Shown: piece after piece, positions 37,082 through 56,279 of the stretch
How positions within the stretch are numbered: the first letter of the stretch is position 1
Layout: each line of letters starts with the position of its first letter
DNA from: a virus
Virus record (IMG/VR): IMGVR_UViG_3300044858_003398
Length of the DNA stretch: 64,000 nt
Reading direction: 5' to 3' (one strand)
Notes under the pieces: generated by a model
Databases searched by the model: none
The model's input: the letters and a program-made list of their open reading frames with translations, nothing else
Told to the model about the DNA's origin: nothing
Translations under genes and position numbers: made by a program

Positions 37082-38177
37082 TTATTTCCTCTCCGCAACA
37101 CATTCCTGTGACAACCCACCTAAACGGTGCCGATACGATAGATGCACTTATACATCCGGAGGCAGGATTTCCATCATAGATATTCTTGAAAGCCTGAGCT
37201 GTCCCCTTCATGCCAATAAGTACGGAGATGGGCAAATTAAAAAAGCACATTCCTTCATCAAATACTCTGATTCCAGTATCTCCAACAGCTACTGATGAAG
37301 TGGTTTGTCCTATGTCTGTTACCGTAGTTATGACGTAGTTACATCCAGCAGAGCTTGATCCTATGTCTTCAGATGGGCTATCGATCGTAAACCTCATCAA
37401 CTCTGTACTTCCGCCAGTAGCTATCCACACCTTTTTACCGTCATCCCATCTTACATCTAGAGGACCTGTTTTCCAAAGAGATGGATCGGAATATGCTTGA
37501 GGGTGCATGATCCCGCTTTCTCCAGTTGGGACTGGGTTTCCGCTAATGTCATAGCCGGGGCCACTCAATATCAGAGGGGCTCTGTGGGCTACTGATCGTA
37601 TGTCCAGTAACTCTGTCTTCTTGCGGTAGTAGAAGTCAGCATCAAAATAATTAGAGACTGAGTGAACGCCAGACTCTAGCGATTCAGCACTAGCGATTCT
37701 GTTCGCTGTCATAGCAGCCAAGATATTATGTCCACCTTCGGCCCATCCACTTGGGTTATATGTGCCAGTATCTACCAATCCAATATTATTAACCCCTGTC
37801 CCGTACATGTTAGATGGGTTAAATGGGTTCAATGAATTAACATTGATTACGCCAGCACCAGTCTCGGTTGGTGCCTCAAAATGTGGGAGAAGACCAGTAT
37901 AGTAAGGTGATGTGGAGTACCCGACGTACAACCCATCAAGGCTTATAGCTCCAACATTAATAAGATTGTCTGCATTACCAGCTGCTGATAGCAGTGTTGT
38001 ATACTGCCTAAAATATTCAGTATCAACTATGTTGTTACAATAGTACGAGAAACTATGCTTCTCCGACGCCGCATCTAGTAGATTACCAGTGGACCTTACA
38101 AACTGCTTTGCAGCAGAAATAATAAACTGAGGAGACGAAATCATGTCTCTCTTTTTACTGGTTTTATTTTTGCTCAT
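37074..38177 (-). CDS. putative tail-tip protein
   Basis: WKTGPLDVRWD; position in tail module. Confidence 0.55.
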   Translation of the reverse strand: MSKNKTSKKRDMISSPQFIISAAKQFVRSTGNLLDAASEKHSFSYYCNNIVDTEYFRQYTTLLSAAGNADNLINVGAISLDGLYVGYSTSPYYTGLLPHFEAPTETGAGVINVNSLNPFNPSNMYGTGVNNIGLVDTGTYNPSGWAEGGHNILAAMTANRIASAESLESGVHSVSNYFDADFYYRKKTELLDIRSVAHRAPLILSGPGYDISGNPVPTGESGIMHPQAYSDPSLWKTGPLDVRWDDGKKVWIATGGSTELMRFTIDSPSEDIGSSSAGCNYVITTVTDIGQTTSSVAVGDTGIRVFDEGMCFFNLPISVLIGMKGTAQAFKNIYDGNPASGCISASIVSAPFRWVVTGMCCGEEINA

Positions 38178-41100
38178 TATTTAGATCTTAGCTTATCAGA
38201 AAGTTTTCTTAGTCTTCGCACAACATCCCTACTGTCCCTGCCGAATCTCTGACTCAAGCTTCTAAAGTTGTATGTAGTCTGGACTTCAGAAGAATTAAAG
38301 GTAATATTGATATCGGTTATCCTAGGACCATTTGGTATAATCCCGCCTATTCTCTGTATTATAGGCAATCCCGGCAGGGTTAGCGTACCCTCTTCCTGAG
38401 CAAATAGTGAAAAGTTGTCTATACTATTGGCTATCGCCTGACCTGCTAGATTCATTCCAGCAAAGCCGCTCAGAGATGTCCCTTTTACTGTACTGACCAC
38501 TCTGGAGACCGACCCGTTTGGGTTAACTACCTGCCAATTAGTAGTTATGTCCCCATAGACTGGCATCATAAAGTTTTCTGGGACTAGATCCTCGTCTCGT
38601 TCATACTCAATTTTGCCACAGAATATAGTATTTTCGAAGTTAGTCATCCATGGACCATACACGTACCTATTTGATTTCTGCGGAATGCCCACAGCTTTTG
38701 GCGAGACAGCGGCTCTCGATGCAGAACTCTTCCCAAATTCTTCTCCGAATTCAGCAAAATCAGCCAGTTGGTCTGGCAAGCTATCTATAGCGTTTAGTCT
38801 TATCGAGTTGGACATTTCATCAATATATTTAGCCGATAGTGGATTTACTCCATCACTTTGGAACGTGGAGGGGTAGTATACTGGGGAAGTTGTGAATTTT
38901 ATGAATGGGAGTCCACTTCCTGCAGTGACAACCGGCTGATTTTTGATACCATACAATATGTCCTTCAGAGCGGTTCCGGAGTAGGTAAACGCAAAATGAG
39001 AGTCATACAACCCAGTCACAGATGGGGTAGGAACAAGGTTGATATTGTCTATAGTATTATCATTTTGTCTTTTGTAGTTGTTTAATACCTGAGTACGTAA
39101 GCCCTTAGTGCTCAGAGTATTGAAATAACCACTAGGCCCTATATCGTTCACACCAAATGGTGGAGTATATACCTCGATGTAATCATAAGGCAGACCTAAT
39201 GATGCAGAGATACCAATCTCGCTATGATGCTCTTTCATGGTATCAACGACATCTGAACTAGGGAAGAACACTTTAGACGCTGCATCAGTAATTGAATTGC
39301 TGGGGAGACCCTGAACTCCAACAGCCTCAGCTATTTGCTTGAAGCTAAACGTATACTCGTACATATAAAAATTGGTTGTGCTTGTGCTCATGCTCTCTGG
39401 TGGAGTACCAGTACCAGCAGGAGGATCAACGCTATCTATTACTGGACAATGTCCTCGATTATAGTAATCGAAGTACTTAGGAGTTAGATATATGTAATCT
39501 TCTCCGAGCGAAATAGGGGCGTGTGCGATACTAATGACTGGGCAATTTCCAGTACCGGATGGGTCGATATCAAAAACAGTACTGTCATTATGCTCAGAAA
39601 AGTCATATTTGTACTTGACTCCGGAGGCAAAACCAGATAGTTGCCCAGAGAGAAGACCGTAGCAGAGGTCGTCATCTCCACCGGCTACGAAAGAGTGCTC
39701 AAAATTTGCAAAAGACTTAAGTCTTCCATCCTGCATAAAGCTTGAATCTTTTGGTGCCTCCATTTGATTGTAAGCATATGGCTCGACATAGGCAGAGTCT
39801 GTAATGTCCCATGACTTAACAACATTGCCGACTAGGCTAGTATCACTCTCTGTAGTCTTTGTTCTAAACAGTGGGATTGGGGCAACCCAACTCTTGCCGT
39901 AATGGGTGTCGCCAATGTCTTTAACTTTTTCCCATATTTGCTTTATAATCTCGTAGTCGTCCGGAAGATCAAACTCTTCTGCTTGGGTAGAAGCACCAGC
40001 GAATCCCCTAAGAGACATGTATTTTCTAGTAGTGGCGACATTGGATGTGGTGATTTTGTCTCTTAGAACGTCCAACCCTCCACCTTCAAGTACATCAATC
40101 TTGTGTTTCTTCGTAGCCCTTAGATATGACTCCCAAGCCTCATAGGAGACCATCGCAGCCCTTATCTCAAGCATGCTTGCAAAGTATACACCGTCATAAC
40201 ACACCCCGACAATGGTCTCCTGAGAGAAGATAGACTGCATGTCTATAGCAACCCAGTCCCACGTATCATTAGGTGGCAGGGTTTGGGTGATGACTGGTAT
40301 GCTTTTAGTAGAAGTGGCTGTTGCTGAGCAGTAGTCCCCAGTTTGAGACACAAGAGCTATTTCTCCCCAGTATTGGTAGATATAATCTCTAGGAACAACA
40401 TTCATTCTAGTCTGGAAACCACCAACTACCATTTTGGCCGCTGTTACATCGCTAGCTTTCAAGCTCAAGGAAAGGTTGATTGGCCTGCTAATGCCAGAGT
40501 CAAAAACCCCACTTGCGAATGCTTCAGGCGGCTGAGGAACAGCTAAGATAACTCCAGTTTCTGGCCCAACTACCGGAAAGCGTCCCCCATATGGTCTAGA
40601 TCCATCAGTACCATTCTGTGCATAGTCAAAATCTATAGGATTAATGAATCTGCTACCATCGTCGAGTAATACCGTACCAGTATCTCTCGGCATATTAAGG
40701 TATGGAGGAAGCCCCGGATTTATGCTTCCGGCTCCACTAGATGGAACAAGTATCCCATAATCGCCAGCGTCTGGTCTTTCAAGATTCAATAGATCATAAG
40801 TGAACTCACTGAATGGCCTATTGCAATTTACGTATGTATTCCTTTGTATCAGGACTATCGATATGATTCCGCCAAAGATGGAATTCGGATATGTCTGAAT
40901 TAGTTCTGCCGCAAAACTTCCATCCCCATATGACTCATCATTCAGTTCGATGATAAAATCTGCATTAATAGCATCACATATGTTTGCTATAAAGTCGGCT
41001 AGTGATATGGAATCGCCAGAGATCAAGAAGTCCTCTGGTAGATAGTATAAAGCCGAAGAAATGAATCCAATTATGTCTATACCGTAATAGTATGGATACG

Positions 41101-41962
41101 GAGGGATATTTCCCTGTGCAGTATCACATATGTTATAGGTATTAGTGCCATAGAGGATATTGCCTCCTATGTACCTTTTGACAGAGGTTGCACTGGTTTT
41201 ATTCACTAGCTGGTCTATCGCGTATGCAATTTTGTCAACTCTCATACCGGAGTTAGAACTAGATGCTCCAAAACCAGCAAATGGGACAACAGCAACTCGG
41301 AATTCATCACCCGGAGGGCCTAGCAGGCCAAATGGATCTAGTGGATCTTCCTTCACCCATTCATTCTCGTAAGCGGCAAATACGTTGATGATGTTATAGG
41401 ACCTCTCCCACATTCCGGTAAAAGAGAGGTTCGAATTATTGGTCGCGAAAGAGTAGTCGCTAGTCTTGAAATAGTCTTCTGTTGGGGTCATACTGACTCC
41501 GTCAGGCAGATATCCCGGCTGCTTATCGGAGTCATCTATCTGATAGTAGCCGTCTCCTGAGAAGAACTGTGGAACCCCCTCGGTCGCAGCCCCATATCCC
41601 GGATAAGTATTTATTACTAGGGTTACGGCCTGTAAGACCTTCAGGGGGCTTACTATATTTGCCTTATATGATTTGTTGTCCGGACCTGAGTCTCTAGAGA
41701 TCGAGTCTAGGACTCCGTTAAAACCAAATATGGTTGCCCCGCTATTATCAACTATTTTGAAAAACTTGGGCGATCCTATAACTCCGGGGCTAAAGACATC
41801 ATTGTCCGTTGTGTCAACAACTAGGTCGATGGAGCATGAGCCGGGTTGGGAAGCATAGTCGGCAGAGCAATTAAATTTGGCTACGGTGGCCCCCATAAAT
41901 TTCTGCACTGGCACCAACGAAGACACGCCACTTCCAAATGGCTCAATTCTTTCATTCGTCAT
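38177..41962 (-). CDS. large tail-tip/hub-like protein
   Basis: 1261 aa; N-terminal FNGVL-type hub strand; C-terminal ITDINITF; two genes after the TMP. Confidence 0.55.
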   Translation of the reverse strand: MTNERIEPFGSGVSSLVPVQKFMGATVAKFNCSADYASQPGSCSIDLVVDTTDNDVFSPGVIGSPKFFKIVDNSGATIFGFNGVLDSISRDSGPDNKSYKANIVSPLKVLQAVTLVINTYPGYGAATEGVPQFFSGDGYYQIDDSDKQPGYLPDGVSMTPTEDYFKTSDYSFATNNSNLSFTGMWERSYNIINVFAAYENEWVKEDPLDPFGLLGPPGDEFRVAVVPFAGFGASSSNSGMRVDKIAYAIDQLVNKTSATSVKRYIGGNILYGTNTYNICDTAQGNIPPYPYYYGIDIIGFISSALYYLPEDFLISGDSISLADFIANICDAINADFIIELNDESYGDGSFAAELIQTYPNSIFGGIISIVLIQRNTYVNCNRPFSEFTYDLLNLERPDAGDYGILVPSSGAGSINPGLPPYLNMPRDTGTVLLDDGSRFINPIDFDYAQNGTDGSRPYGGRFPVVGPETGVILAVPQPPEAFASGVFDSGISRPINLSLSLKASDVTAAKMVVGGFQTRMNVVPRDYIYQYWGEIALVSQTGDYCSATATSTKSIPVITQTLPPNDTWDWVAIDMQSIFSQETIVGVCYDGVYFASMLEIRAAMVSYEAWESYLRATKKHKIDVLEGGGLDVLRDKITTSNVATTRKYMSLRGFAGASTQAEEFDLPDDYEIIKQIWEKVKDIGDTHYGKSWVAPIPLFRTKTTESDTSLVGNVVKSWDITDSAYVEPYAYNQMEAPKDSSFMQDGRLKSFANFEHSFVAGGDDDLCYGLLSGQLSGFASGVKYKYDFSEHNDSTVFDIDPSGTGNCPVISIAHAPISLGEDYIYLTPKYFDYYNRGHCPVIDSVDPPAGTGTPPESMSTSTTNFYMYEYTFSFKQIAEAVGVQGLPSNSITDAASKVFFPSSDVVDTMKEHHSEIGISASLGLPYDYIEVYTPPFGVNDIGPSGYFNTLSTKGLRTQVLNNYKRQNDNTIDNINLVPTPSVTGLYDSHFAFTYSGTALKDILYGIKNQPVVTAGSGLPFIKFTTSPVYYPSTFQSDGVNPLSAKYIDEMSNSIRLNAIDSLPDQLADFAEFGEEFGKSSASRAAVSPKAVGIPQKSNRYVYGPWMTNFENTIFCGKIEYERDEDLVPENFMMPVYGDITTNWQVVNPNGSVSRVVSTVKGTSLSGFAGMNLAGQAIANSIDNFSLFAQEEGTLTLPGLPIIQRIGGIIPNGPRITDINITFNSSEVQTTYNFRSLSQRFGRDSRDVVRRLRKLSDKLRSK

Positions 41963-41964
41963 AC

Positions 41965-43626
41965 TTATCCCTGTTCTTTCTCATAAGTCCATCCTATAGA
42001 ATATGTGTAGCTTCCGCTCTTTGGATTCCATGACTCCTGAGGGGCATCATAGAATACTTTAGTAGGAATTACTCCAGATTCATTGGCGGGATTCGCCGCG
42101 TCATATATTGCCTGAAAGTCCCCAGAGCTAGCTATGCTTGGTTTTTGTGTGAATAGCCAATTCTTGATTTTGTCTGATCTAGTCTCTACTCCGGTTGGAG
42201 GGAGGAACCTGCCACTCTCGTCTGTTCTAGAAGCATAGTCCGGATTGTCTGAATATCCCCAGTTCCTTGACAGATCGCCCATCTGGACATTAATGTTTAG
42301 CGTTCTCTTATACTCACTTCTGGACCCCAAGTATTGTAGAACTGGCTGACTTCGTCCTATTACTGGCGTGGCTGAATACAACTGGCCGGGATAGGTATCA
42401 TCAATTGATATCTCTTCTGATATACTACCAGCAATGATGTTTGGTGGCCTATTATCATAGCTGAACTTGTATGTAATCTCCCCAGCATTTGGGAATCTAC
42501 CGACAGAAGAGCTTACTGGCCTTGGATGTAGCCAAGCCATACTGCCAATGTTCTGCTTAACTCTATTATACAGGGATGATTCTACTGCCCCATAGTATGA
42601 TAGAGCATTTGTGTACTTAGATACTGAAGTGCCTGATACTCCGGTTGGTAAATTAGTCTCTATCCCCTTGATCGATCCATCGATTGAGACGCTAGTTAGT
42701 GATGATTCTGACTTATCGACAGAAATTGAGCAGTTTTCAAAGGCCAATATACCAGATGGGAAAAGTCCACTTGGTACATAAGAAAAGGTTTCTTCTACCT
42801 GATAAGATCCAGCCGATCTATTTATCGTCTCATTCATGGTCCTATTAGTAATATAGTAGCCGGAGGCAACGTATAGGAGCCCTTGTGGGATGTTGGCCGG
42901 GCCTAATCCAACTACTGAATTCACGTATCCACTAGCTTGCTGCCAAGCCTTTAAGGGGATATTCCCAGAAGAGTCATAAACTCTTTTACCCTGTGCCTCA
43001 ACCGAGTGAGATATTGAGTAGACCTTTTTGATTTCTCCCCAATTCCCCGTGTTAACTACAACGTTTTCATCTTCTTGTATGGACCAATTCTCATTTACTG
43101 AAGAGACATAGTAGGAGAAGCCGTCTTCGCTTGATCCATTTGTGAATAGGCCAGTATTGGCGGGCGATATGAAGTTGGCAAAATCAAACTCCATAGTATA
43201 ACTGGCAGGTTTGGCCCAGTTACCGTCTGAGTCTACAGTGAAAGATTTAAGATCTCCATAGAACTTAAGCCCCTGATCGTGGGCGAATCCTACAACTTCT
43301 ACCTTGATGCCAGTAGCTGGAGATACTAAGTCTCTCAACTGCTCCATTTTGGTAATTGTGGAAATCAGTAGGTCTGATTCCCCTATGTTGTGTAGCGGGT
43401 CATCGTCTGCGGATTGGGTTGTAGTCCAACCGGCAACAGACATAGACGAAGCAAATGAAACTCCAGAGGTAGAGATCGGGTTTCCCTTATTTTGCAGGAT
43501 TTTGCCCTGTAAAGATAAAGTGTATCCAGCCCCAAGGTTCGTGCCATCATCTGCTATGATGGTATTTTTAGAGAAACTAGCAACTGGGGCCGGTAATATG
43601 GCTTTTCCATTTACGATTACTGGCAT
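41965..43626 (-). CDS. distal-tail-like protein
   Basis: Immediately after the TMP; repeated beta modules (YTLSLQG, YSISHSV, YTYSIGWTYE). Confidence 0.5.
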   Translation of the reverse strand: MPVIVNGKAILPAPVASFSKNTIIADDGTNLGAGYTLSLQGKILQNKGNPISTSGVSFASSMSVAGWTTTQSADDDPLHNIGESDLLISTITKMEQLRDLVSPATGIKVEVVGFAHDQGLKFYGDLKSFTVDSDGNWAKPASYTMEFDFANFISPANTGLFTNGSSEDGFSYYVSSVNENWSIQEDENVVVNTGNWGEIKKVYSISHSVEAQGKRVYDSSGNIPLKAWQQASGYVNSVVGLGPANIPQGLLYVASGYYITNRTMNETINRSAGSYQVEETFSYVPSGLFPSGILAFENCSISVDKSESSLTSVSIDGSIKGIETNLPTGVSGTSVSKYTNALSYYGAVESSLYNRVKQNIGSMAWLHPRPVSSSVGRFPNAGEITYKFSYDNRPPNIIAGSISEEISIDDTYPGQLYSATPVIGRSQPVLQYLGSRSEYKRTLNINVQMGDLSRNWGYSDNPDYASRTDESGRFLPPTGVETRSDKIKNWLFTQKPSIASSGDFQAIYDAANPANESGVIPTKVFYDAPQESWNPKSGSYTYSIGWTYEKEQG

Positions 43627-46600
43627 TATAGTGCTCCCATTTCTTTTCCACGTATCGCTTCTGCTATCATATCACTTATTTCTCTTTTTGCTGCGTCACT
43701 TACCATCCCGATAACGCCACTTTTATCACTAATATCTACTGACACATTTCCTCCCTGCATCTTCAGATCAAAGCTAGCACCTTTTAGTCCGTCAAGTATC
43801 GTTCTCATATCTTCTGAGAACTTACCTAGGCCACCAGTCATACTCATTATAGACTGATTGAACATAGCCGCAGAGGAACTCAACATTTCAGAATGAAGCC
43901 TCATACCTTCTACAAGAGCGGCGTCGTTAGCATTGATCTCTGTATTTTGTGCCCCAACCTGTCCAGCAAGGTTACTACCATTAGCGGTAAATCCTGTCTG
44001 TCCGACCATGTTTAAATTCTGACCAAGTTCTGAGTTCTGACCAAGTCTTCGAAGACCGATCTTTCCACCAGTGGCACTAGCATCTCTTTGAAGGTTTTGA
44101 GCGGTTTCCGGAGCCTGTATTCCAGTATAGAAAGATCTATCCCCGCCATTTCTGTTAATGGCTCGGCCTATTTCCTTATTAGCAGCAGCTTCTCCACCAG
44201 TTAGTCTGGCATTCTCAACCCTCTGTAATGATCTCAACTTCTTCTGAGCATCTCTCTTCGCATCTGTACCAGCCCCACCGCTTAAAGCTATATTGAACTC
44301 TTCTATGGTTTGAGCCCTATCCTTCTCAAGAGAGAGTTCTTCTTTTATCGCCTCTATATTAGCTTCACGAAGACCGGTCTCTCGATTAATTGCAGCCGCT
44401 TGTTTTTCTGCTGCTACTTGCAGGGCAGAAAACTGGAACTGTAAACCTATGCTGTCTTGTGCTACTGCGTTGGCGGCAGCGGCAGCATCACTAGCTGCAC
44501 CGGGTGCGGCGTTAGGTCCAACAACTGGTCTAGCTGCACCAGCGGCGGCAGCACCACCACGAAGGGCTCCACCACCAGCCCCATTGACGGCAGTAGCAGG
44601 TACGCCAGCTACAGTAGCTTCTCTTCTTATCTTATTATCTCTGGCGGCTTTAGCTCCTACTGCGGTATTTAAAGGGTCAGAAGTTTCCTGAGCTACTATT
44701 CTTTTCCCTTTACGATTCAGCATTTCTGCAGTAAAGCCGTACTCGGCCCGAGTGTCATTTGCTGGAATAAGTGATCTTGTTTCGTCTTGTCTTGCTCGAA
44801 TCTCGCTAATTGTAGATCCACCTGATCTAAAGCTTTGTAGATCTGCATCTCTTCCTCTGGCCGAACGGCCAGCCTCGTCACTCGCAGCGGCATACTCCAT
44901 TTGAGCTTTATTGGCAGCATCTAAAGCGTCTATAAACCTATTGATGCCAGTTTCTACATTCGTAGCTGCTTCGATTAGTTTACTTTGAAGCTCGTCGGCT
45001 CCCGCTATTGTCGCCTCATAGGCTGCATTTATAGCATCCGCATCTAACCCATCTGCAGATCCACCAGCGGCCTCAATGGTGTCTCTTTTATTCTGTAGTA
45101 TTTTTTCGCTCAACTCCTTCCTCTTTTCAGGAGTGGCGGTTGCGAACTGCTGATTTAATTTTTCTAACTCAGACTTAGATCTATTTACAGCAGACAGATT
45201 TTCATCGTATCCAGTAACACCTAAAGATTTAGCAGCAGCTATCTGCCTATTAACATCAGAGCTAGAAGCATTGGTAGAAAGGGAGGAGCTTCTAAAACCA
45301 GAAGAAGACAGTCCAGCAATCGTACTGCCAAGCTGCGAAGCGGCAATACCCTTTCTGTTAGCTTCTGCAAGACCAGTAGTAGTAGCTAATTGCTTCACCA
45401 ATTGTTCACTAAGAATAGCTCGTAATGCAGCTTCTGTTTTAGCGGCTTCTATTGAATCTTCAAATTGCAGACGCATATCACCAGTGATACCAGCAAGCAT
45501 CATCATTTCTGCTGCTGCTGGACCGATAGATATTAAAAATGCATCCCAATCGGTGCCACCAAAGTCTGTAAACGCAGACATACTAGTGTCAACTAGTGGA
45601 GCAATTTGATCAAAATTAGATTTAGCTTGGTCTTTAACAGCCTGTCTATCGTCTTCCATCTCTTTACTGAGTCTTACATTAGTATCATTTATACTTTCTC
45701 CCCCCACCATTTGTGTAAAAGAATCCAGTACTTGTCCAAAATATCCAGTCTGAGAATTCTGAGTTTGTTGATCCTGCTTCTCTTTTGCGGATTTTCTTGC
45801 GTCTCGATCAGCAGCCCCTATAGCGGCAGCATTTTCTCTGACAACACCACCTCTCAGAACATTATCTGCTTTTTCTTTATTATTAGCTTTAGCCACTTGC
45901 TTAGAAAGAGCAGTACTATTTCTATCTGAAACGTTCTTAGCATTTTGTAAAGACGCTTTAAACGATGCTTTTGCCGCTATGGAGGCACTTGATTCTAGCA
46001 GTCCAAAGCTAGCTCCAAGGTCTCTGATACCTGTTGCGAGACCAGCTCCTACATCTGTCATTAAGACAAGCTTAGCAACAACACCGACGATAGCGGCTCC
46101 GAGCACTACTGGCCAAGCAGCAAGACCAGCTACGGCTAATCCAATACCAGCCACAAGTGCAGTAAACGATGCTGAAAGCACTGTCGCATCTGATTGACTC
46201 TTCTCGTAAGTAGCTGCTTCAGCAGCCTTAGCTGCATTTCCCTCCATAATTGCCTTATTAGTCGCTTCAGTCAGTCCTCTAGCACTATCCACGATAGACC
46301 CAAAAGCATAAACTGAGAGCCCAGCAGCAGCCATAGCAGCCGTAGTAGCAACAACCGCCCCACCCAAAGCAGACATACTACTAACAGTAGAGGCGGAAGC
46401 AATACTTGATCCTCCCACGTTTGTAGCGAGTAATTTAGAAGCCTTTGTAGCTATCCCCTTGAAACCACCAGATAAAAAAGAAGAAATACTTTTAGCATTT
46501 AGGGAAACACCAAACAGCTCTAAAGCTGACACCGCTAATGCAGCAGTACTTACAAATTCTAAGGTAGTCCCAATAGCACGACTCATAGCAGATTCTGAGT

Positions 46601-48962
46601 CGGTGTATTGTGAGGCGACCCCTGCAGCAACGAACGCAAGATCAGAGAACGATGTTTTTACTCTTTTGGTTTCATCGTCCAGATCTCCTGATCCTGAGAA
46701 CGCTCCAGTTCTTACCGCATCTGATGCCTTTTTGCCTCCTCTAGGTTTAGCTTGAGGAGGATTAACCTCTTGATCAAACTCATCCCAACTGTGGATCGTG
46801 GGCGGAGTAAAAACATCAGGCTTAACTCCACGACCTCTACTGCCAGTGGCAAATTTTTGAACACCTACATACCCACCAGAGGCATACTTATTAACCTTCT
46901 CTAGATTACCATAACCGAAGGCTTGTGCAGACTCCTTGTTGACAACGAACTCGCCGGGAGTAAGCAGTGCTGGCACTGTATCTGTACCAGAAATTCCACC
47001 ACCAGTAGCCCTTCTTATACCCACTTTCTTTTTCCGCTTCATCGTCCATAAATCTGGATCGGTTACATACGTAGTAATAGATTTTGGACTAAGATCCTTC
47101 TGCCTAATCTCCATTCCTCGTATTCTTCTGTTCGCGTTATTAGAAGCAGATAATAATAGGGCCTTCGCAGCAATACCTGCATGTGTTGCCCCCTTTATAT
47201 TATCATCATCACTATACGTGGTTCCCTCCTTCATGAATTTAGCTTCAGAAGCACCTCCGGGAGAATATGGAAAATCTACATATGCATATGGATTAGTAGA
47301 TGGCCGACCAGTTTTAAATCTTCTACTCTTAGATAGAACCTGCTCAAATCTTTTTCCATACGGGCCACTCAATTTATGGAATAGCTCAATATCTTTCTGA
47401 TTTGGTATTACTTTTTTAAAATCAGCCGTATAATTCATTTTTCTTTTAGCTAGAGCACTAATATTACCTGAAGAATCTTTAAAGCCTTTAAGGGTTTTAA
47501 TGCTCTTATAAGAATCGCTTAATTTCTCTACTGTGCCCCCAAAGCCATATTTATTGATTCCATGCAAAGCCTCAGCCCCCATAGCCTGAGCCGCACTCTT
47601 TCTAATCACAAATTCGCCGGGCTCCAACATAGCCGGTACAGTGTCTCCACTCCCGCTACCGGGAACGAACCCACCAGATGCTCTCTTTATTGGGGCCTTT
47701 CCTCTCCCAAAGCTAGGCAAACCAACACCCAGCAATGATTTTGACAATTTAATAGCTGCGAATGTAGCGAGAAGCGGAATCAGTTCCTTGATAGAACCAG
47801 CGAACCCGATGAATGCGTTAGTGAGTGATAGCACAGTCGAGATCATAGCCTTAAAAGAGCTAGTCTCCATAACGTCGCCAATCAGCTTAGCAAAATTTTG
47901 CTGAGTCTGTGCAAGCTTAAATGAGAGAGTCTCTTGTGCCTTGGCTAAGTCGGCAGCGGTCTCTGACGAAGCATTCTGAGCGTCCGCATAAATCCTTTGC
48001 ATCTTAGCGGCTTGAGTCAGTAAAGGAATAACTCTCGATTGCTGCAAGACCCCACCGAGCTGTTCTACGATAGCTGAGAACTGAAGAGAGCCCGGTTGAA
48101 TATTGGCTCTCTGTATGCCTTTTTGGATCTCTATGATGGCCTCATAGTTACCAATAAAGTTCCCCTTAAGGTCTGTAAGCTCGATACCGAATTGACGAAG
48201 ATAGTCAATCGTTTTAGGTCTCTGTAGACGAGAAAAGATGGTTCTAAGACCTGTAGAGATAGTCTCAGAGCTTTCTCTAGTAGTATCTCTTACTGTTGTG
48301 TAAATGGTCACAAGCTCTTCAAGGCTTCCACCAGTAGCAGCGAAAACACCGCCCGCCCGCTTGGCCGCATCGACCAAGTCGTCAGATTCAACAGCGTACT
48401 TCTTAGCAACCACATTCAGTAAAGAAAGAACTCTGGCAGACTGTCCAACGGTTTCTGTGAACTGCTTATTGATAGCAATCAAACCTTCTGTGGTATTTGA
48501 TATGCTCTCGAAGGATGCCAGTAGGGTTGTCTGGGCCAGATTGTCTGCAGCCGCCTTTGCTTCGTTTAAAGAATAACCAGCCTGAGCCAAAACCCTTATG
48601 GTCTCTGCGATTTTTGGAGCGGATAAACCATAAGCAACAGACATTTTCCTGATAGACTCAGAATGCTCCTTTATATCCTTATTGCTGACCCCAACAGTCT
48701 GAGCTAGTTTGGCCAATTCTTGGTCAAATCTAATAGCGTCATGAGTGGCACTAGCGACCACCATGCCGATCTTGGCCATAGCACCGCCCAAAGCGGCATA
48801 CCCAGCTAGATTGATCCCCTTTAGGCTGGCAGCATCATAAAATGCTTTAGCGGATTTGGTTCCTCTCTCTAGGCGAGTATTGACACTAGAAACGGCCCTC
48901 TGGACGGATGAGCTATCCACGCTTTCTAGAACTAGTCTAGCAGATACGTCGTAAAGGGCCAT
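43626..48962 (-). CDS. tail tape measure protein (TP901-like N-terminal core) with internal cargo-like domain
   Basis: 1778 aa, Ala-rich helical; FDQELAKL, LAQAG, TGLRTIFSRL; hydrophobic segments; upstream chaperones and tail tube. Confidence 0.9.
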   Translation of the reverse strand: MALYDVSARLVLESVDSSSVQRAVSSVNTRLERGTKSAKAFYDAASLKGINLAGYAALGGAMAKIGMVVASATHDAIRFDQELAKLAQTVGVSNKDIKEHSESIRKMSVAYGLSAPKIAETIRVLAQAGYSLNEAKAAADNLAQTTLLASFESISNTTEGLIAINKQFTETVGQSARVLSLLNVVAKKYAVESDDLVDAAKRAGGVFAATGGSLEELVTIYTTVRDTTRESSETISTGLRTIFSRLQRPKTIDYLRQFGIELTDLKGNFIGNYEAIIEIQKGIQRANIQPGSLQFSAIVEQLGGVLQQSRVIPLLTQAAKMQRIYADAQNASSETAADLAKAQETLSFKLAQTQQNFAKLIGDVMETSSFKAMISTVLSLTNAFIGFAGSIKELIPLLATFAAIKLSKSLLGVGLPSFGRGKAPIKRASGGFVPGSGSGDTVPAMLEPGEFVIRKSAAQAMGAEALHGINKYGFGGTVEKLSDSYKSIKTLKGFKDSSGNISALAKRKMNYTADFKKVIPNQKDIELFHKLSGPYGKRFEQVLSKSRRFKTGRPSTNPYAYVDFPYSPGGASEAKFMKEGTTYSDDDNIKGATHAGIAAKALLLSASNNANRRIRGMEIRQKDLSPKSITTYVTDPDLWTMKRKKKVGIRRATGGGISGTDTVPALLTPGEFVVNKESAQAFGYGNLEKVNKYASGGYVGVQKFATGSRGRGVKPDVFTPPTIHSWDEFDQEVNPPQAKPRGGKKASDAVRTGAFSGSGDLDDETKRVKTSFSDLAFVAAGVASQYTDSESAMSRAIGTTLEFVSTAALAVSALELFGVSLNAKSISSFLSGGFKGIATKASKLLATNVGGSSIASASTVSSMSALGGAVVATTAAMAAAGLSVYAFGSIVDSARGLTEATNKAIMEGNAAKAAEAATYEKSQSDATVLSASFTALVAGIGLAVAGLAAWPVVLGAAIVGVVAKLVLMTDVGAGLATGIRDLGASFGLLESSASIAAKASFKASLQNAKNVSDRNSTALSKQVAKANNKEKADNVLRGGVVRENAAAIGAADRDARKSAKEKQDQQTQNSQTGYFGQVLDSFTQMVGGESINDTNVRLSKEMEDDRQAVKDQAKSNFDQIAPLVDTSMSAFTDFGGTDWDAFLISIGPAAAEMMMLAGITGDMRLQFEDSIEAAKTEAALRAILSEQLVKQLATTTGLAEANRKGIAASQLGSTIAGLSSSGFRSSSLSTNASSSDVNRQIAAAKSLGVTGYDENLSAVNRSKSELEKLNQQFATATPEKRKELSEKILQNKRDTIEAAGGSADGLDADAINAAYEATIAGADELQSKLIEAATNVETGINRFIDALDAANKAQMEYAAASDEAGRSARGRDADLQSFRSGGSTISEIRARQDETRSLIPANDTRAEYGFTAEMLNRKGKRIVAQETSDPLNTAVGAKAARDNKIRREATVAGVPATAVNGAGGGALRGGAAAAGAARPVVGPNAAPGAASDAAAAANAVAQDSIGLQFQFSALQVAAEKQAAAINRETGLREANIEAIKEELSLEKDRAQTIEEFNIALSGGAGTDAKRDAQKKLRSLQRVENARLTGGEAAANKEIGRAINRNGGDRSFYTGIQAPETAQNLQRDASATGGKIGLRRLGQNSELGQNLNMVGQTGFTANGSNLAGQVGAQNTEINANDAALVEGMRLHSEMLSSSAAMFNQSIMSMTGGLGKFSEDMRTILDGLKGASFDLKMQGGNVSVDISDKSGVIGMVSDAAKREISDMIAEAIRGKEMGAL
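46872..47681 (-). repeat. two diverged copies of A[S/T]GG..(G.)G.DTVPA.L.PGEFV..K..AQA.G...L...NKY..GG flanking a 175-aa insert
   Basis: Copy 1 at 47535-47681, copy 2 at 46872-47009. Confidence 0.85.
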
Positions 48963-48976
48963 AACTTACTCCTTAA

Positions 48977-49750
48977 TTATTGAGGAACTACTTCGGTAGG
49001 CACATTAAAGTCATCCTCAAATTCGGCTTCTTCAATCTTAACACCGAGTGGATTACCATTTAGATCAATGCGTTTTCCTTCAGAATCGATCCTGTAGCCC
49101 TCTTCATCAACCCTGTGGCCCTCAATATCAACTAGGTTTCCAGCGTTATCGACGAAGTGTCCAAGGTCGTTTACAAGCTTAAATCTCTTTAAGAACTTGT
49201 TCTCAACTAGAGTACTCTCATAATCTTCATTGACACCGTAAAGGAAATTGGCGAACTTCTCGGCGAGAGAGATGCCTAGATCGTCAGACCCCTTCTCTAC
49301 GTAGTCTTCCGTAGAGGCATAAACGCACTTTTGAGTGTCGTAGTCAAAAACTGACTTAGCCAAAAGGGCATTGAATCTGGCATTATCGGCCTGTGCTTCG
49401 GCGGAATTAGATTCCATCTGATTTCGCTCAGAAATCAATAATCTGAACTCGGCACGCTTTTTAGCAAGCTGGATGGCGAGAGCTTTCCCCTCACTAACCT
49501 TCATTTTTCCAGACGATAGCTTGTATTCCAGCTCCCCAATCTCTTTGACGAAGGATTTATACAGTTCTTCCTTCTTGTCGTTCCACACTCCTTGTTCGAT
49601 CATATAGTTCATTAGGCTCTTTTTCAAAAGAGCCCCATCATCGAGGGCCTGACGAAAGGCCTTATTGTGGATCTTCTTACCTTCGGCGATAGCCTGTGGG
49701 GTAATCTTGATGAAATAATCTTTTTCCCCAACTGTGAATCTATTTTCCAT
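48977..49750 (-). CDS. putative tail assembly chaperone with C-terminal (V/I)DxxG heptad repeats
   Basis: Directly upstream of the TMP; VDNAGNLVDIEGHRVDEEGYRIDSEGKRIDLNG. Confidence 0.5.
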   Translation of the reverse strand: MENRFTVGEKDYFIKITPQAIAEGKKIHNKAFRQALDDGALLKKSLMNYMIEQGVWNDKKEELYKSFVKEIGELEYKLSSGKMKVSEGKALAIQLAKKRAEFRLLISERNQMESNSAEAQADNARFNALLAKSVFDYDTQKCVYASTEDYVEKGSDDLGISLAEKFANFLYGVNEDYESTLVENKFLKRFKLVNDLGHFVDNAGNLVDIEGHRVDEEGYRIDSEGKRIDLNGNPLGVKIEEAEFEDDFNVPTEVVPQ

Positions 49751-49988
49751 GATCTCTCCTAAGTGGCATAAAGTAAACTGTCTTGTATTTGATATCGAAC
49801 CCGTCTAAATCCCGTTCCAATTCCCTGATCTGAAAATGGCCCTTGTCCAAAATGTCTTTTCTTAGTCCTTCATATTCATCCTCCTCAAAAATTTCTTTGA
49901 ACTCTTCCAAACTTGCAAGAGCCCCAATCATTGTTGTCATGATGCGTTTCCGCACCGCTTGATAAAGTTGTACTGCCCCGTTCCCCAT
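49740..49988 (-). CDS. hypothetical protein
   Basis: 82-aa ORF overlapping the next start. Confidence 0.5.
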   Translation of the reverse strand: MGNGAVQLYQAVRKRIMTTMIGALASLEEFKEIFEEDEYEGLRKDILDKGHFQIRELERDLDGFDIKYKTVYFMPLRRDHGK

Positions 49989-50018
49989 TTTTAACCCCCA
50001 ATCCTTATTGAGGCAAAT

Positions 50019-50933
50019 CTATTTGCCCCTGAAACTTAATTCGTTTTTCTTGAGGCCTATCTCTTGTTTTACGTGTGAGAACTGACGCTCATCAAGCTCA
50101 CCTTTAGCGACTAAATCCTTGGCTCTGGACTTCAGAATTTGCTTGCCCTCTACGCTGTTCAGGCTATTAATCTCTTTAATCTCCTTCTGGCTAGAAGCCA
50201 TAACGAAGACCTCCCCAGCATTTTGGCTTGGAAGATCTTTCTTCTTTTCTTCGGCCTCTCTCTTCTTCGCCTGCTTGATAAACCAGCCATCTACGGCTAG
50301 AGAATCTTTCATGACAGCACTACCCGGAGCATCTGTAGATTCGCTAATATTGTCGTACAATTTACTCCAGTAGAGTAAACTAAGCTGGTTATCATTTAGC
50401 TGGTTAGCACTAAGCCCGAAAATGGATTGCGGGTCTTTAGAAACACCCCATATCATTCTCCAAGTACTGTCGAAATACAGGGCTCTTATGTCATCCTCTG
50501 GCATTCTAGAATTAAGAAATTTACGTGAAAACGCAAAGGGATAATCCTTGTCTCTAAATAGATAGTATGCATAGGCCTCATCACGAGCATATTCGCATGT
50601 ATACTCGTTTAGATAGACCTTCTTCTGAAATACGGCGTTCAATTGGTGAATTTTGGCCTCGATTGCCCGCTTAACTTTCATGCGTCTTGTTTCAATAGCG
50701 AACATCTCGAAGTAGTCCACTTTCATTTGTTGCAAATCCTCAAGCCCCTGAAGATAATCTTCCTCTTCCTGCTGACTCCATAGACCAATCTCTATTAGAT
50801 AGTCGGCCAATTCTTCTTTACTGAAAGACCCAGACTCAAAGCATTCGTCGTAGACCGCTTCGGCATAAGCCGAAGCTTCAGCCTTCTCTATAGGGGAGAA
50901 ATTGGCGATCCTGATCGGCTTTTTAAAAGCCAA
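50019..50933 (-). CDS. putative tail assembly chaperone-like protein (start uncertain)
   Basis: Helical protein between tail tube and TMP. Confidence 0.5.
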   Translation of the reverse strand: MAFKKPIRIANFSPIEKAEASAYAEAVYDECFESGSFSKEELADYLIEIGLWSQQEEEDYLQGLEDLQQMKVDYFEMFAIETRRMKVKRAIEAKIHQLNAVFQKKVYLNEYTCEYARDEAYAYYLFRDKDYPFAFSRKFLNSRMPEDDIRALYFDSTWRMIWGVSKDPQSIFGLSANQLNDNQLSLLYWSKLYDNISESTDAPGSAVMKDSLAVDGWFIKQAKKREAEEKKKDLPSQNAGEVFVMASSQKEIKEINSLNSVEGKQILKSRAKDLVAKGELDERQFSHVKQEIGLKKNELSFRGK

Positions 50934-50998
50934 TAGCGTCGTGTTAGACAGCAGTTCCTGTATGATGGGCTTCGCCCTCCTAAAGTCCTTATACGAGA

Positions 50999-51018
50999 AT
51001 GGGGGCTTTCGCCCCCAT
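50999..51018 (-). terminator. hairpin ATGGGGGC-GAAA-GCCCCCAT downstream of the tail tube gene
   Basis: Perfect 8-bp stem; same core as 914-932. Confidence 0.6.
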
Positions 51019-51046
51019 CAAGTCCGAAGGTTCACGCAGCTAAGGC

Positions 51047-52252
51047 CTACGTAAACCAGTACTTAAAGTAGCTACCAGCCTCAAGCCCCATTGGGTCTCC
51101 AGAGTGTAGAACTACGAAGTCGTTGTTGTTCTGCATTGAGTATGTGATAGAGGCGTTGCCCCCACCAGCGTCCCCACCACCATAGCTTACGCTAGTTAGC
51201 TTGTTCTTGTTGCCAACCTGAATCACGGTTGAGTCATCAAGACATACCTGAATGGTATGGTTTGACAAGTTACCACCGCTAGGTACGTCTTCGACAGCGT
51301 TGATATTGTCCCCACCAACTGCAATCACCTCAATCTCAGTTGTTACGTTGACTGGGAAGTTAACGTATCTGTAGTATGGGGCATAAGTACCAAGCTGGTT
51401 GATCGCTTCGCGGCCAGCATCAACTGAGAAACTGATAGACTGAACGTGAACGTCGGCAGTATTGATTGTCCCACAATTCTTGAAGGTCGATGCTCCGTTA
51501 GCTCCGGTGGATGGTCCGTTATTAGAAATACCAGTTATAAAACTCGGAAGGACGGTAACGAAACTATTGCCACCGCGAGTCACTAAGCCTGATCCGGTCA
51601 GGAAGTTGTTTCTTCGCAGGACACCACTATCTGGCGAATCAGGTGAGTCATCCCCGAATGCGAAGACAGAGTTGACAACTCCACCAGCACCAAGTAGAAT
51701 ACCGGCGGTTCCGTCAGAAGTGATCCACTTCTTGTTGTTGCCTACAAGGGTCAAGCTCTCAGTGAAGTTTCCATCAGTCGGCAGACTGATACTAACTGAA
51801 GACCAATACATACCTGAACAATACAACTCAGCGGCCAAACTATCACCACTAGTTACAGCAGAGTCAGTATCGAGACCGATAATCATTCTGAGGTCGGCTC
51901 TCGCGTTGGCTCTGCCAGAAAGGGTAGGATCGCTAGCAGTAATAGTGGCAGCATGATAGGCCATCGTGTAGCCATCCAGCAGACGCTCCATAGTCGCCTC
52001 GACATCCGGAACTTCTTCCACGTTCTCATAGATCGAAAGCTGACCCAATTCTTGCACGGCTTCAAGACTGAAGTTGGTATTAACCCCAAGGCTCTGAAGA
52101 CCATGCATGATGATCATGCTGCCAGAACCAACGAAGGTCCCACCATCGCTAGTACCCCATGCATCTTTTACACCAGTAGCCCCCATGTCGCCGATAGCAA
52201 CACCTTGAGTGGCGTAAAAAACACGCTTATTTGAACTTGTATTAAACGCCAT
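51047..52252 (-). CDS. major tail (tube) protein
   Basis: HGLQSLGVNT...ELGQLSIYE.VE..PDVE; tail-module position; own promoter-like motif and downstream hairpin. Confidence 0.65.
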   Translation of the reverse strand: MAFNTSSNKRVFYATQGVAIGDMGATGVKDAWGTSDGGTFVGSGSMIIMHGLQSLGVNTNFSLEAVQELGQLSIYENVEEVPDVEATMERLLDGYTMAYHAATITASDPTLSGRANARADLRMIIGLDTDSAVTSGDSLAAELYCSGMYWSSVSISLPTDGNFTESLTLVGNNKKWITSDGTAGILLGAGGVVNSVFAFGDDSPDSPDSGVLRRNNFLTGSGLVTRGGNSFVTVLPSFITGISNNGPSTGANGASTFKNCGTINTADVHVQSISFSVDAGREAINQLGTYAPYYRYVNFPVNVTTEIEVIAVGGDNINAVEDVPSGGNLSNHTIQVCLDDSTVIQVGNKNKLTSVSYGGGDAGGGNASITYSMQNNNDFVVLHSGDPMGLEAGSYFKYWFT

Positions 52253-52283
52253 TTATTTTCTCCAGTAAAAAGGAACTTCTAAC

Positions 52284-52293
52284 TATTTATACG
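52284..52293 (-). promoter_or_regulatory. putative late promoter CGTATAAATA
   Basis: Contains the T4-late-like TATAAATA; variants precede other genes. Confidence 0.5.
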
Positions 52294-53228
52294 CCAAAAT
52301 GAATTACCTCAGTGGTAATTTTAACTGTGCCAATTTTTAGGGTGCCCAACGAGTATACAGAATCCAGCTTCGCATCTTTGATATACATGGTTCTGCCAGA
52401 GTATGTGCTACATAAGTCTGGGTAGGTTTTTGCCCCGGAGTTTGGAACACCCCGATAATCTAGGGGGAAATCATCAGCGTCTGCGATTTCGTTAAGATCA
52501 TACATCTTCATGGAGGCTTTAGATTGGTATGTAAGGGCATCCACAAGGGAATCCCGAGTGTATGAATCCTCGGCTACACAATGGCAGTAGAAATCTGTTT
52601 CGACCAATTGGCCACCTCCCAACTGATATGGGGCCAACCTACGCCCCGCCAATTCAACGCCTATTACCGGGAGAGCTTGGCGATTTTCGGGCAGGAGTTC
52701 ATATATGCCACTTTGTGAGGCGAAGTCCCCATTGGATCTCTCAGATCTCTCCTGTAGCTGCTTGAACCAGCTCAAACCATCCGAGCGTGTAACGCTCACA
52801 TACTTATAGGAGTAGGCCATTTCTACTACAGAGCTTGCGGCTATAGCTGTATCAAACCTTACTGCCCCATTTATGTGGTCAACATGGTAGGCATAAGTGC
52901 CAGTAGTAGATGGCGGATACAGGGTGGAATTAACACGAACCCCAGAAACCCCCGGATAGGCTGGATTAGTAGAGGTTAAGGCTCCGACTCCCGACTCCCA
53001 AACTAGATTTGGCCTGAAGGTGGCCCACACCTGTCCAGATGTATACCTCGGGTCATCTACAAGCCTAAGCCTGCTATCCACCCCGCCATAAAGTCCCGTA
53101 GACGGAACCGGCACATCAACAAAATTCCCCATCTGGAGAAGGCTGTGGTCGAGGTACGAGACCAGATTCTCTTGTATATCATTGGTGAGAGTAGAATCCC
53201 CCAACCTAACAAAACCTTTTAATGACAT
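52287..53228 (-). CDS. putative tail terminator/neck protein
   Basis: Upstream of tail tube; LPVIGVE...YQLGG...DFYCH. Confidence 0.5.
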   Translation of the reverse strand: MSLKGFVRLGDSTLTNDIQENLVSYLDHSLLQMGNFVDVPVPSTGLYGGVDSRLRLVDDPRYTSGQVWATFRPNLVWESGVGALTSTNPAYPGVSGVRVNSTLYPPSTTGTYAYHVDHINGAVRFDTAIAASSVVEMAYSYKYVSVTRSDGLSWFKQLQERSERSNGDFASQSGIYELLPENRQALPVIGVELAGRRLAPYQLGGGQLVETDFYCHCVAEDSYTRDSLVDALTYQSKASMKMYDLNEIADADDFPLDYRGVPNSGAKTYPDLCSTYSGRTMYIKDAKLDSVYSLGTLKIGTVKITTEVIHFGV

Positions 53229-54549: not shown

Positions 54550-55812
54550 CTATGCGTTAACGTCTCTGAATTCTATCAGACTGAATCTACAACTTACAAA
54601 GGTATCATTAATATCTGTTGTTCCCTCGAACCATATACAACTCTTTTCACCAATTATAAATGGCTGCGAAGGGCTCAAATAAGTTGTATTTTCTGCTGCT
54701 GTATCAATTAGCTCATTGAATACATTATACTTACTATTACTGACAGCACTATAAACCCATGCCTTAACCCTTACCTTCGGGCTAGTTCCTCCACCAGTTT
54801 TCTCTGCGTTGAATCTTAAATAATCCGCCAATGCTGTATGATTATTTTGGACAAAGAATATAGATTGCTGCGTTGTCCCTTCACCTACTGGCATCTGTCC
54901 TTGTGTAGTTCCACTTATAGTAGCTGTAATGACTCCAACATTAGCCTTATTGCTTCCAGCTAAATATACAGAAATTCTGTTTATCCCTATCCAAGTACTT
55001 GTTGTTACTACTGGGGTGGTCCCATTTAGAGTTACAACTTCTATTTGCGACTCCCAATTACTATCGACTCCATAAATAACAACTGAATTAGCCCCAGTTC
55101 CTGCTGGACTGCCATCATCGTCTGCTGAAGTAGAGACTATAGAAATAGTCGCTCCAGTTGTTAATGGAACAAAGGCCCCGCCAAAAGAGGCAATTACTTC
55201 AGTACCTATATCTAGATCTGCATTATACCCGAACTTATTCCACGTAGTAGCACCTTGTCTCCTGCCTAAAGCAGTCTCATATTTATAATCAGTAGGTCTT
55301 ACTACTGTCGCATCATAATCCTGAGATAAGACCGAATCAGAAGGAGCATTAAGTGGGGCCTTTTCCCCATACATAGTCTGAAGACGAAAATAGGTTTGGG
55401 TTCCGCCTGTGTTGGTAAAAACTACTCTAGCAAATCGTCTTGAATTAGTGAATCTATGTGGGGCTTCGATCTGATCTGTACGGTAATACCTCAGTAAAGA
55501 AGAATCTAGATTTATTCCATCTGGGGAGTATTGAACCGCCAACGTCCCGTCAGAGTCGGTCTTTACGGCTACGACTAAGGAACTATAATTCTTTACATCT
55601 TCCCATGTTCCGGTGAAAGATGCACCAGAAGCAACAATTTCAGTTGACGAATTGATTGATGAAACTTTATATGGGTCTGCTTCGCTTGACAAGAAAACTT
55701 CACTTACATCATTATCTACAGTAGTAGACTGAGTATTGCCAATTTTGTCGGCCCATATAGTCATGCCACCATTGTTATATACCGTTCCTGTTGTAGCGTA
55801 GGTAAAACTCAT
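54550..55812 (-). CDS. putative virion protein
   Basis: Beta-rich; WNKFGYNADLD...VISTSADD domain; ATG 55812. Confidence 0.6.
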   Translation of the reverse strand: MSFTYATTGTVYNNGGMTIWADKIGNTQSTTVDNDVSEVFLSSEADPYKVSSINSSTEIVASGASFTGTWEDVKNYSSLVVAVKTDSDGTLAVQYSPDGINLDSSLLRYYRTDQIEAPHRFTNSRRFARVVFTNTGGTQTYFRLQTMYGEKAPLNAPSDSVLSQDYDATVVRPTDYKYETALGRRQGATTWNKFGYNADLDIGTEVIASFGGAFVPLTTGATISIVSTSADDDGSPAGTGANSVVIYGVDSNWESQIEVVTLNGTTPVVTTSTWIGINRISVYLAGSNKANVGVITATISGTTQGQMPVGEGTTQQSIFFVQNNHTALADYLRFNAEKTGGGTSPKVRVKAWVYSAVSNSKYNVFNELIDTAAENTTYLSPSQPFIIGEKSCIWFEGTTDINDTFVSCRFSLIEFRDVNA

Positions 55813-56279
55813 GATCTGCTCCAATACGACCCATACGGCGACAAGATAGCTTCGCCAACATTATTGTTGGTAGTAGCAAAATTCAATTTAGTACGTTCAT
55901 ATCTCTCGCACATGTCTGCATAGAGACTTTTGAAGTTAGTAGCTACGCCGCCCATATCGACGCTAGATGGACCATCGCTAACCCTAACCGCCGAAAGGCT
56001 GTGAGTCTTATACTCTGCCCCAATTATAATACAGGCCGCTTTTAGGGAAATCAGATTGATGAAGCCATCATCTTTACTGGTCGGCTCTGTCGGGTCTGGC
56101 GAAATTAAACATCGCTCCACATTAATAGTGTACACTTGTTCAAAATCAATCTCTGTAGATACCAACTGTGCAGCAACCAGTATAGTTTGCTCAATTCTCT
56201 CATCTGGATATGATGGGTTAGAGAAATCCGTATCATTAACGAGATATCTGACAATCGTCGTTATTTCGCTATTCCACAT
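55809..56279 (-). CDS. putative head-tail adaptor
   Basis: VRYLVND.....Y.DERIEQ...; VSDGPSSVD; typical adaptor pattern. Confidence 0.55.
   Translation of the reverse strand: MWNSEITTIVRYLVNDTDFSNPSYPDERIEQTILVAAQLVSTEIDFEQVYTINVERCLISPDPTEPTSKDDGFINLISLKAACIIIGAEYKTHSLSAVRVSDGPSSVDMGGVATNFKSLYADMCERYERTKLNFATTNNNVGEAILSPYGSYWSRS

Follow-up and report, generated by a model that had tools for sequence, protein, structure and literature searches.

A hook-fenced, hypervariable and putatively PD-(D/E)xK-like domain in the giant tape measure protein of an uncultured marine phage

The 64,000-nucleotide stretch of viral DNA held in IMG/VR as record IMGVR_UViG_3300044858_003398 (hereafter the window, meaning the whole stretch of DNA that was analysed) derives from an uncultured marine phage and encodes a tape measure protein (TMP), a member of a large clade of giant TMPs found in uncultured, mostly aquatic phages. 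Behind its N-terminal core this TMP carries two copies of a short conserved module, here called the hook, and between them a basic domain (slot 1) that is best read as restriction-endonuclease-like and that has been exchanged among close relatives by recombination within the hooks. The features on which this account depends are as follows.

43626..48962, minus strand: TMP gene P0001 (5337 nucleotides, 1778 amino acids [aa]; from the open reading frame list and its translation)
48105..48659, minus strand: N-terminal TMP core, aa 102-286 (Pfam PF10145, E 3.1e-25)
47535..47681, minus strand: hook copy 1, aa 428-476, with an AxGG box at its start and KYGFGG at its end (pairwise alignment, profile)
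47010..47534, minus strand: slot 1, predicted basic PD-(D/E)xK-like domain, aa 477-651, 175 aa (AlphaFold2 [AF2] model, VIA-align)
47238..47345, minus strand: slot 1 signature residues E540 (47343-47345), D563 (47274-47276) and E573-A-K575 (47238-47246), from an alignment of 25 sequences
46872..47009, minus strand: hook copy 2, aa 652-697 (pairwise alignment, profile)
46842..46859, minus strand: post-hook box QKFATG, aa 702-707 (QKFAxG stands behind hook 2 in most aligned relatives)
46989..47552, minus strand: replaced DNA cassette, without nucleotide similarity to two close relatives (blastn against L084 and L083)

The product of P0001 has the great length, mostly helical character, alanine content (15%), hydrophobic segments and position within a tail gene block that are expected of a TMP. 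Besides the Pfam core, PHROGs 28, 1533 and 4211 match within its first 400-500 residues, PHROG 28 with an E-value of 1e-32.

The two hooks are identical at 26 of 49 aligned positions (53%; E 6e-16) and define a module of about 47 aa, in agreement with the original prediction made from this sequence, which had described two diverged copies of a 46-49 aa motif at these positions. A profile assembled from 375 motif instances and run against all six frames finds these two hooks and no others in the window, and the downstream genes are without any hook by the same profile search. Both copies fit the pattern [FY]AxGG-x(3-10)-D-x-[VI]-P-A-x-L-x-x-G-E-F-V...G...L...N...[FY]AxGG, in which the [FY]AxGG box stands at both ends of each hook; the module consensus begins KFASGG. 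The KFATG that lies beyond hook 2 had been taken for a remnant of the motif, a description we correct here: it is part of a conserved QKFAxG box, the same [FY]AxGG box that opens and closes each hook. A decayed third hook copy at this place was ruled out, the box being conserved in most of the aligned relatives. The AF2 model predicts for both hooks a short beta-hairpin followed by two short helices, at predicted local distance difference test scores (pLDDT) of about 65-78; in copy 1 the strands occupy model positions 23-27 and 32-34 and the helices 36-42 and 44-51, and copy 2 is alike.

The hook is not specific to this TMP, and is a widely conserved, unnamed module shared with lambda, mycobacteriophages and cyanophages. 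It is an ancient TMP module homologous to residues 733-788 of lambda gpH; a local search finds a complete hook there, flanked by the same boxes (FATGG...GEFVFTKEATSRIGVGNLYRLMRGYATGG). Compared with PDB sequences, a profile of 25 hook copies matches the mycobacteriophage protein Douge gp16 (two copies, E 3e-8), lambda gpH (E 0.036) and, weakly, residues 1020-1068 of JBD30 gp46 (E 0.35); a phmmer search of the same sequences with a 270-aa region gave no match, and these TMP chains were found by the module profile only. Searches with tblastn and PHROGs place the hook also in TMPs of Gordonia, Ralstonia, Nitrincola and Streptomyces phages and in virion proteins of cyanomyoviruses. In BFVD the hook superposes on TMP models of mycobacteriophages and cyanophages with root-mean-square deviations (rmsd) of 1.3-2.0 A over 41-47 residues, and the matches of that search are confined to the hooks, against other TMPs. 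A literature search for the hook motif strings returned nothing relevant.

The predicted shape of the module agrees with that of the JBD30 'hook' (residues 1022-1066; a beta-hairpin and two helices), which its authors liken to the T5 pb2* anchor; that anchor stays docked in the baseplate hub after the hub has opened (PMC11445458). In T5, cleavage of pb2 falls after R1127, immediately behind this anchor of about 43 residues, and frees a C-terminal metallopeptidase fragment (PMC10038345). Lambda gpH is converted to gpH* and gpHC during tail maturation, at an unmapped site in a Gly-rich region (PMC12617516).

Slot 1 differs sharply in composition from the protein around it. With 24 lysines and 12 arginines against 11 aspartates and 6 glutamates it has a net charge of +19 and an isoelectric point of 10.1, and its alanine content is 7%, compared with 15% for the whole TMP; the insert is thus as strongly basic, and as unlike the Ala-rich remainder, as had been claimed for it. 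It was also said to be more AT-rich than the TMP core, and its guanine-plus-cytosine (GC) fraction of 0.368 does lie below that of every 525-nucleotide window sampled along the gene (mean 0.45, standard deviation 0.03). At third codon positions (GC3) the value is 0.274, which is ordinary, 19% of the gene windows being lower. The AT-richness therefore reflects a Lys-rich composition and not foreign DNA, and a foreign origin of slot 1 was rejected on this ground.

All three sequence boxes in which the original prediction had recognised a nuclease-like order are present in slot 1: GKRFE (aa 536-540), YVDFP (561-565) and SEAKF (572-576). In an alignment of 25 slot sequences reaching down to about 30% identity, E540, D563, A574 and K575 do not vary, and position 573 carries either E or D throughout. 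From this alignment AF2 yields a model with a pLDDT of about 88-95 over most of the domain, in which E540 falls within a helix, E573-K575 within a strand and D563 next to a strand residue. When the model was compared exhaustively using VIA-align, about 40 of the 50 best chains were PD-(D/E)xK enzymes, aligned to model residues 100-225 or thereabouts, with a best Z of 4.2; by the program's own note, a common arrangement can be enough to produce a Z below 8. The neighbours include FAN1/VRR_NUC, R.BspD6I, Hjc, NucS, Card1, Can1, Vsr and lambda-exonuclease-like enzymes, the cap-snatching endonucleases of bunyaviruses and influenza virus, a CdiA-CT DNase, many type II restriction enzymes and two PD-(D/E)xK homing endonucleases, I-Ssp6803I and I-Bth0305I.

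The domain thus resembles the PD-(D/E)xK superfamily in the order of its residues, with E in a helix followed by D and by (D/E)xK in a strand, in its GxxFE first helix, as in Hjc- and Mrr-type members, and in having structural neighbours drawn mostly from that superfamily. It is unlike the superfamily in that the first strand, between the helix and the Asp, is not clearly predicted, and in being embedded in a virion structural protein. Set against the alpha-beta-beta-beta-alpha-beta core, the helix bearing E540 and the (D/E)xK strand fit; Z is at most 4.2, and the model of a second allele (described below) has no such matches. Single matches of this kind prove nothing. Because the weak matches are one-sided and the invariant E...D...(D/E)xK stands in canonical order, a restriction-endonuclease-like domain is nevertheless the best reading of the model, and PD-(D/E)xK is weakly indicated as its fold class.

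A search with aa 400-720 matched 2337 TMPs, and hook architecture was determined in the best 120 of these. The best 120 carry 2-7 hooks in a common order: an N-terminal core, a hook, a slot of 120-640 aa, a second hook and a helical and hydrophobic rod of about 1000-1250 aa, often with further hooks and slots. An empty slot was not seen among them. By BLAST, slot 1 sorts into 26 clusters, whose consensus signatures include G..FE...FDF...DAK, GfiFE...FDFP...AEAK, GayAE...GiDF...VEiK and PKAFE...PIDL...IEVR. Of 118 slot-1 segments, 57 contain the strict form of the signature, GxxFE...DF...(D/E)xK; shuffling gives 0.9 on average and 5 at most, and of the 294 segments other than slot 1 only 13 contain it. 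Most of the remaining slot-1 alleles show recognisable variants. The original prediction had the slot receiving different kinds of effector, and this part of it we abandon: as slot-1 alleles mostly bear the same signature, they are not unrelated cargo and form a constant yet hypervariable part of this TMP clade.

Some relatives have a more elaborate arrangement. P0006, P0009, P0016, P0017, P0022, P0061, P0064 and others are 2000-3000 aa long, with 3-7 hooks, and the further slots of such multi-hook relatives, each of 200-600 aa, lie near the C-terminus; Pfam finds no domain in any slot of three of them. The TMP described here ends where the multi-hook relatives have hook 3. P0051 (hooks 461-510 and 508-552) and P0086 (hooks 457-508 and 528-576) have tandem hooks with almost no spacer, the signature being found in the next segment, and hooks can therefore duplicate independently of the slot.

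The most direct evidence on the history of slot 1 comes from close relatives. Over the 300 aa leading up to hook 1, P0002-4, P0011, P0013, P0015, P0020 and P0021 are 96-98% identical to this TMP. P0002-4 keep the same slot allele, at 56-57% identity. P0021 is 98% identical to this TMP in the N-terminal core, 94% and 87% in the two hooks, and 16% in slot 1; the corresponding values for P0020 are 98%, 90% and 85%, and 21%. P0011, P0013 and P0015 behave likewise, so that over this set the slots are 16-21% identical where the hooks are 83-94% and the N-terminal cores 96-98% identical. The same discontinuity is seen in the DNA. Compared using blastn, the contig of P0020 (L084) is 88% identical down to position 47553, where similarity is lost, to resume at 46988 at 69% identity; that of P0021 (L083) is 93% identical down to 47548 and resumes, again at 46988, at 74%. 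The slots of the two contigs belong to different allele clusters. The ends of similarity, at 47548-47553 and 46988, both fall inside hooks, and the hooks are therefore recombination boundaries, one of the two roles that had been suggested for the motif copies. Whole slot alleles have been exchanged by recombination with breakpoints within the conserved hooks. Among more distant lineages, slot and core have diverged to a roughly similar degree (34-39% and 42-47% identity, respectively), which suggests vertical descent. Taken together, the comparisons indicate that the slot domain is a constant but hypervariable component of the TMP clade, occasionally replaced by an allele of the same kind. The swappable slot of the original prediction stands to this extent, in that alleles are exchanged at the hooks, and fails in that the same kind of domain is kept.

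We favour the reading that slot 1 is a hook-fenced, hypervariable domain of PD-(D/E)xK type that is carried in the tail lumen, expelled with the TMP and acts on nucleic acid, and we put its probability at roughly 0.55. The catalysis, target, cleavage and delivery compartment that follow are inferred. The slot domain would ride in the lumen of the tail tube as a segment of the TMP and be expelled with it just ahead of the DNA, to act on nucleic acid at entry. Exit orders and channels of TMPs have been proposed for T5 (PMC10038345), JBD30 (PMC11445458) and lambda (PMC12617516). If here too the C-terminus exits first, with the hydrophobic segments at aa 801-976 perhaps forming a channel, as TMP biology would suggest, the N-terminal third including the slot domain would leave last, beside the leading end of the DNA. 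There the domain could cleave DNA or RNA of the host or of a competitor, or it could hold on to the front end of the phage genome or process it. The hooks would act in docking or as joints, and might also be sites of processing.

Several observations weigh against this reading. No structural match exceeds the Z of 4.2, and rmsd values are about 3-4 A over 75-95 residues. Foldseek against PDB with the slot model returned nothing below E 0.08, and its rows are unrelated; Pfam, PHROGs (up to E 10) and PDB sequences assign slot 1 to no nuclease family. The PD-(D/E)xK fold proposed in the original prediction is partly supported: the insert is modelled as a globular domain (pLDDT about 90), its E, D and K are invariant, and about 40 of 50 structural neighbours belong to that superfamily, all of them as weak matches. 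Among the slot-1 segments, jackhmmer unites only 26 of 118, and hhalign between allele clusters mostly gives a probability below 5% (49% for one cluster). Since profile methods do not unite the alleles, the common ancestry of all of them rests on the short signature. The second allele that was modelled (the L008 slot, pLDDT 67) matched helical hairpins only. In P0011, P0020, P0035, P0036, P0049, P0058 and others, Arg takes the place of the signature Lys (IEVR or VEVR), which is unusual in PD-(D/E)xK sites. A globular domain of 175 aa, in three or six copies, must moreover fit a narrow tube lumen. As for the hooks, a local search detected no sequence similarity between T5 pb2 and the hook, and the proposed link to the T5 anchor is indirect, being a structural analogy taken at second hand from the comparison made by the JBD30 authors, with a weak match to JBD30 itself.

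Wider searches gave the same picture as those in Pfam and PHROGs. Pfam at E 10 finds no nuclease family in the 25 aligned members, and the ESM Atlas has no informative neighbour (best score 0.76, an unnamed viral cluster). A phmmer search with slot 1 of 1.8 billion representatives gave 12 matches, of which those covering most of the domain are all TMP-sized; no identifiable stand-alone nuclease was among them, which leaves slot 1 without a connection to any named family. Many true members of the PD-(D/E)xK superfamily escape detection by sequence.

The slot could instead be a non-catalytic interaction module, binding a host factor of the inner membrane or periplasm that genome entry requires, or being the part of the TMP recognised by host defences or superinfection-exclusion proteins. 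Its hypervariability would then express selection for host range or escape, and its charged residues would be structural or metal-binding. Divergence and replacement do proceed much faster in the slot than in its flanks, the structural matches are weak, sequence searches yield no nuclease family, and published work has shown that TMP regions govern ManYZ dependence and SNIPE sensitivity, with escape mutations mapping to short variable TMP regions. What survives across alleles that cannot be aligned, however, is E, D and (D/E)xK in canonical order, a pattern typical of an active site and not of a diversifying binding surface, and the list of structural matches is strongly enriched in nucleases; we consider this explanation rather unlikely. 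It is a somewhat less likely proposal that the nuclease likeness is coincidental and the slot a structural spacer or plug which, for example, sets the register or seals the tube, and has no function on nucleic acid. The best Z of 4.2, in a range where a common arrangement can account for a match, and the second allele model with no nuclease-like matches would suit such a spacer, but it would not hold four charged residues invariant through near-total turnover of sequence, and chance fails to explain why about 40 of 50 structural neighbours come from one superfamily.

The sharp breakpoints of the cassette within conserved flanks also recall mobile elements, and slot 1 might be an in-frame, selfish, homing-endonuclease-like domain that cuts TMP genes of other alleles in co-infection and spreads by repair with the hooks as homology arms, any benefit to the phage being secondary. 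TMP genes were found to be frequent homing sites in a study of ICP1, where nuclease content varies while the flanks are nearly unchanged, and I-Ssp6803I and I-Bth0305I are among the structural matches. Homing elements are usually sporadic, however, and no site is empty in the TMPs surveyed; the slot has diverged in step with the N-terminal core in distant lineages; features of an intron, an intein or a free-standing open reading frame were not found; and the right flank (69-74%) is less similar than the left (88-93%), unlike symmetric co-conversion. We regard this explanation as improbable. Insertion of an intron or intein was rejected, the reading frame being continuous and Rfam finding no intron model in 46500-48000; no Hint motifs were seen by eye in the TMP translation.

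Beyond the favoured reading of a hook-fenced PD-(D/E)xK-type domain acting on nucleic acid lies a bolder and distinctly more doubtful version of it. According to this, the marine phage clade would deliver into the host a preformed, fast-evolving PD-(D/E)xK nuclease as an internal TMP segment, freed by proteolysis at the hooks, that attacks host or rival nucleic acid or a defence component before phage gene expression, and the swapping of alleles at the hooks would make the TMP a polymorphic effector scaffold.

TMPs that carry muralytic (cell-wall-degrading) domains and TMPs that are processed are already known; the literature searched contained no account of a phage TMP that harbours a domain of nuclease type. 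Should the domain prove active, a preformed enzyme acting on DNA or RNA would be injected ahead of the genome by thousands of uncultured aquatic phages, which would be a new route for host takeover, competition between phages or counter-defence. The hooks, which here act as recombination joints, provide a sequence by which TMPs can be searched for cargo-like domains, and the position of the hook is a concrete place to seek the unmapped cleavage site of lambda gpH.

The remainder of the TMP gene and its surroundings contain a few further features. Hydrophobicity was scored using Kyte-Doolittle windows of 19 residues with a threshold of 1.6.

46035..46562, minus strand: hydrophobic, transmembrane-like stretches beyond hook 2, at aa 801-821, 866-887 and 926-976 (windows above 1.6)

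A further hydrophobic stretch lies at aa 1141-1159. The segment of the gene at 44450-44786 (aa ~1393-1505) is without nucleotide similarity to the two close relatives, its flanks aligning at 69-85%; it is rich in Ala, Gly and Pro, has the highest GC fraction within the gene (0.54) and is possibly a further variable joint or else a linker of low complexity. The locus is syntenic with those of relatives, which have genes of 82 and 257 aa upstream of the TMP gene and of 553 and 1261 aa downstream. Pfam and PHROGs gave no family match for 8-10 neighbouring tail-region genes (34574-43626 and 48977-53228). The sole neighbour with a PHROG match is at 54550-55824, and that PHROG is of unknown function.

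Among the closest known systems are TMP-type proteins in which a hook precedes an enzyme. Streptomyces phage VWB gp47 (L082) has a hook at 786-829 followed by an SLT domain at 959-1041, and virion protein 213 of Synechococcus phage S-SCSM1 (L081, 162462-165314) has a hook at 605-643 followed by a glucosaminidase at 697-816. The hook is the same by sequence (E 1e-13 and 2e-20, respectively), and the enzyme comes 50-130 residues later in each, so 'hook, then enzyme' is a recurring TMP arrangement. They differ from the TMP described here in having a single hook, and in that their enzymes, an SLT transglycosylase and a glucosaminidase, act on peptidoglycan. Both proteins carry 'lysozyme' or 'endolysin' labels, yet they are virion proteins of tail-lumen or tape-measure type; for VWB gp47, which has 1440 aa and a PF10145 match, the 'endolysin' label looks like a misannotation of a TMP.

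We know of no enzymatic activity in lambda gpH. It has one full copy of the same hook, situated in gpHC and adjoining the Gly-rich cleavage region (PMC12617516). It differs in that its hook is single, with no inter-hook domain, and the part of gpHC that contains the hook is not resolved in structures (PMC12617516). T5 pb2 is likewise a TMP bearing an enzyme domain that proteolysis separates from the rod, and release of the enzyme fragment into the host envelope has been proposed (PMC10038345); its cargo is a C-terminal, muralytic Zn-metallopeptidase and not an internal nuclease-like domain.

Polymorphic toxins such as CdiA-CT and Rhs, and the Sle1-type effectors of contractile injection systems, which are TMP-related and have diverse, transplantable functional domains, also pair a conserved scaffold for delivery with a variable functional domain that is swapped at a junction which is itself conserved. 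Unlike all of these, the variable domain described here is internal, is fenced on both sides, is apparently of one fold class and is part of a true phage TMP.

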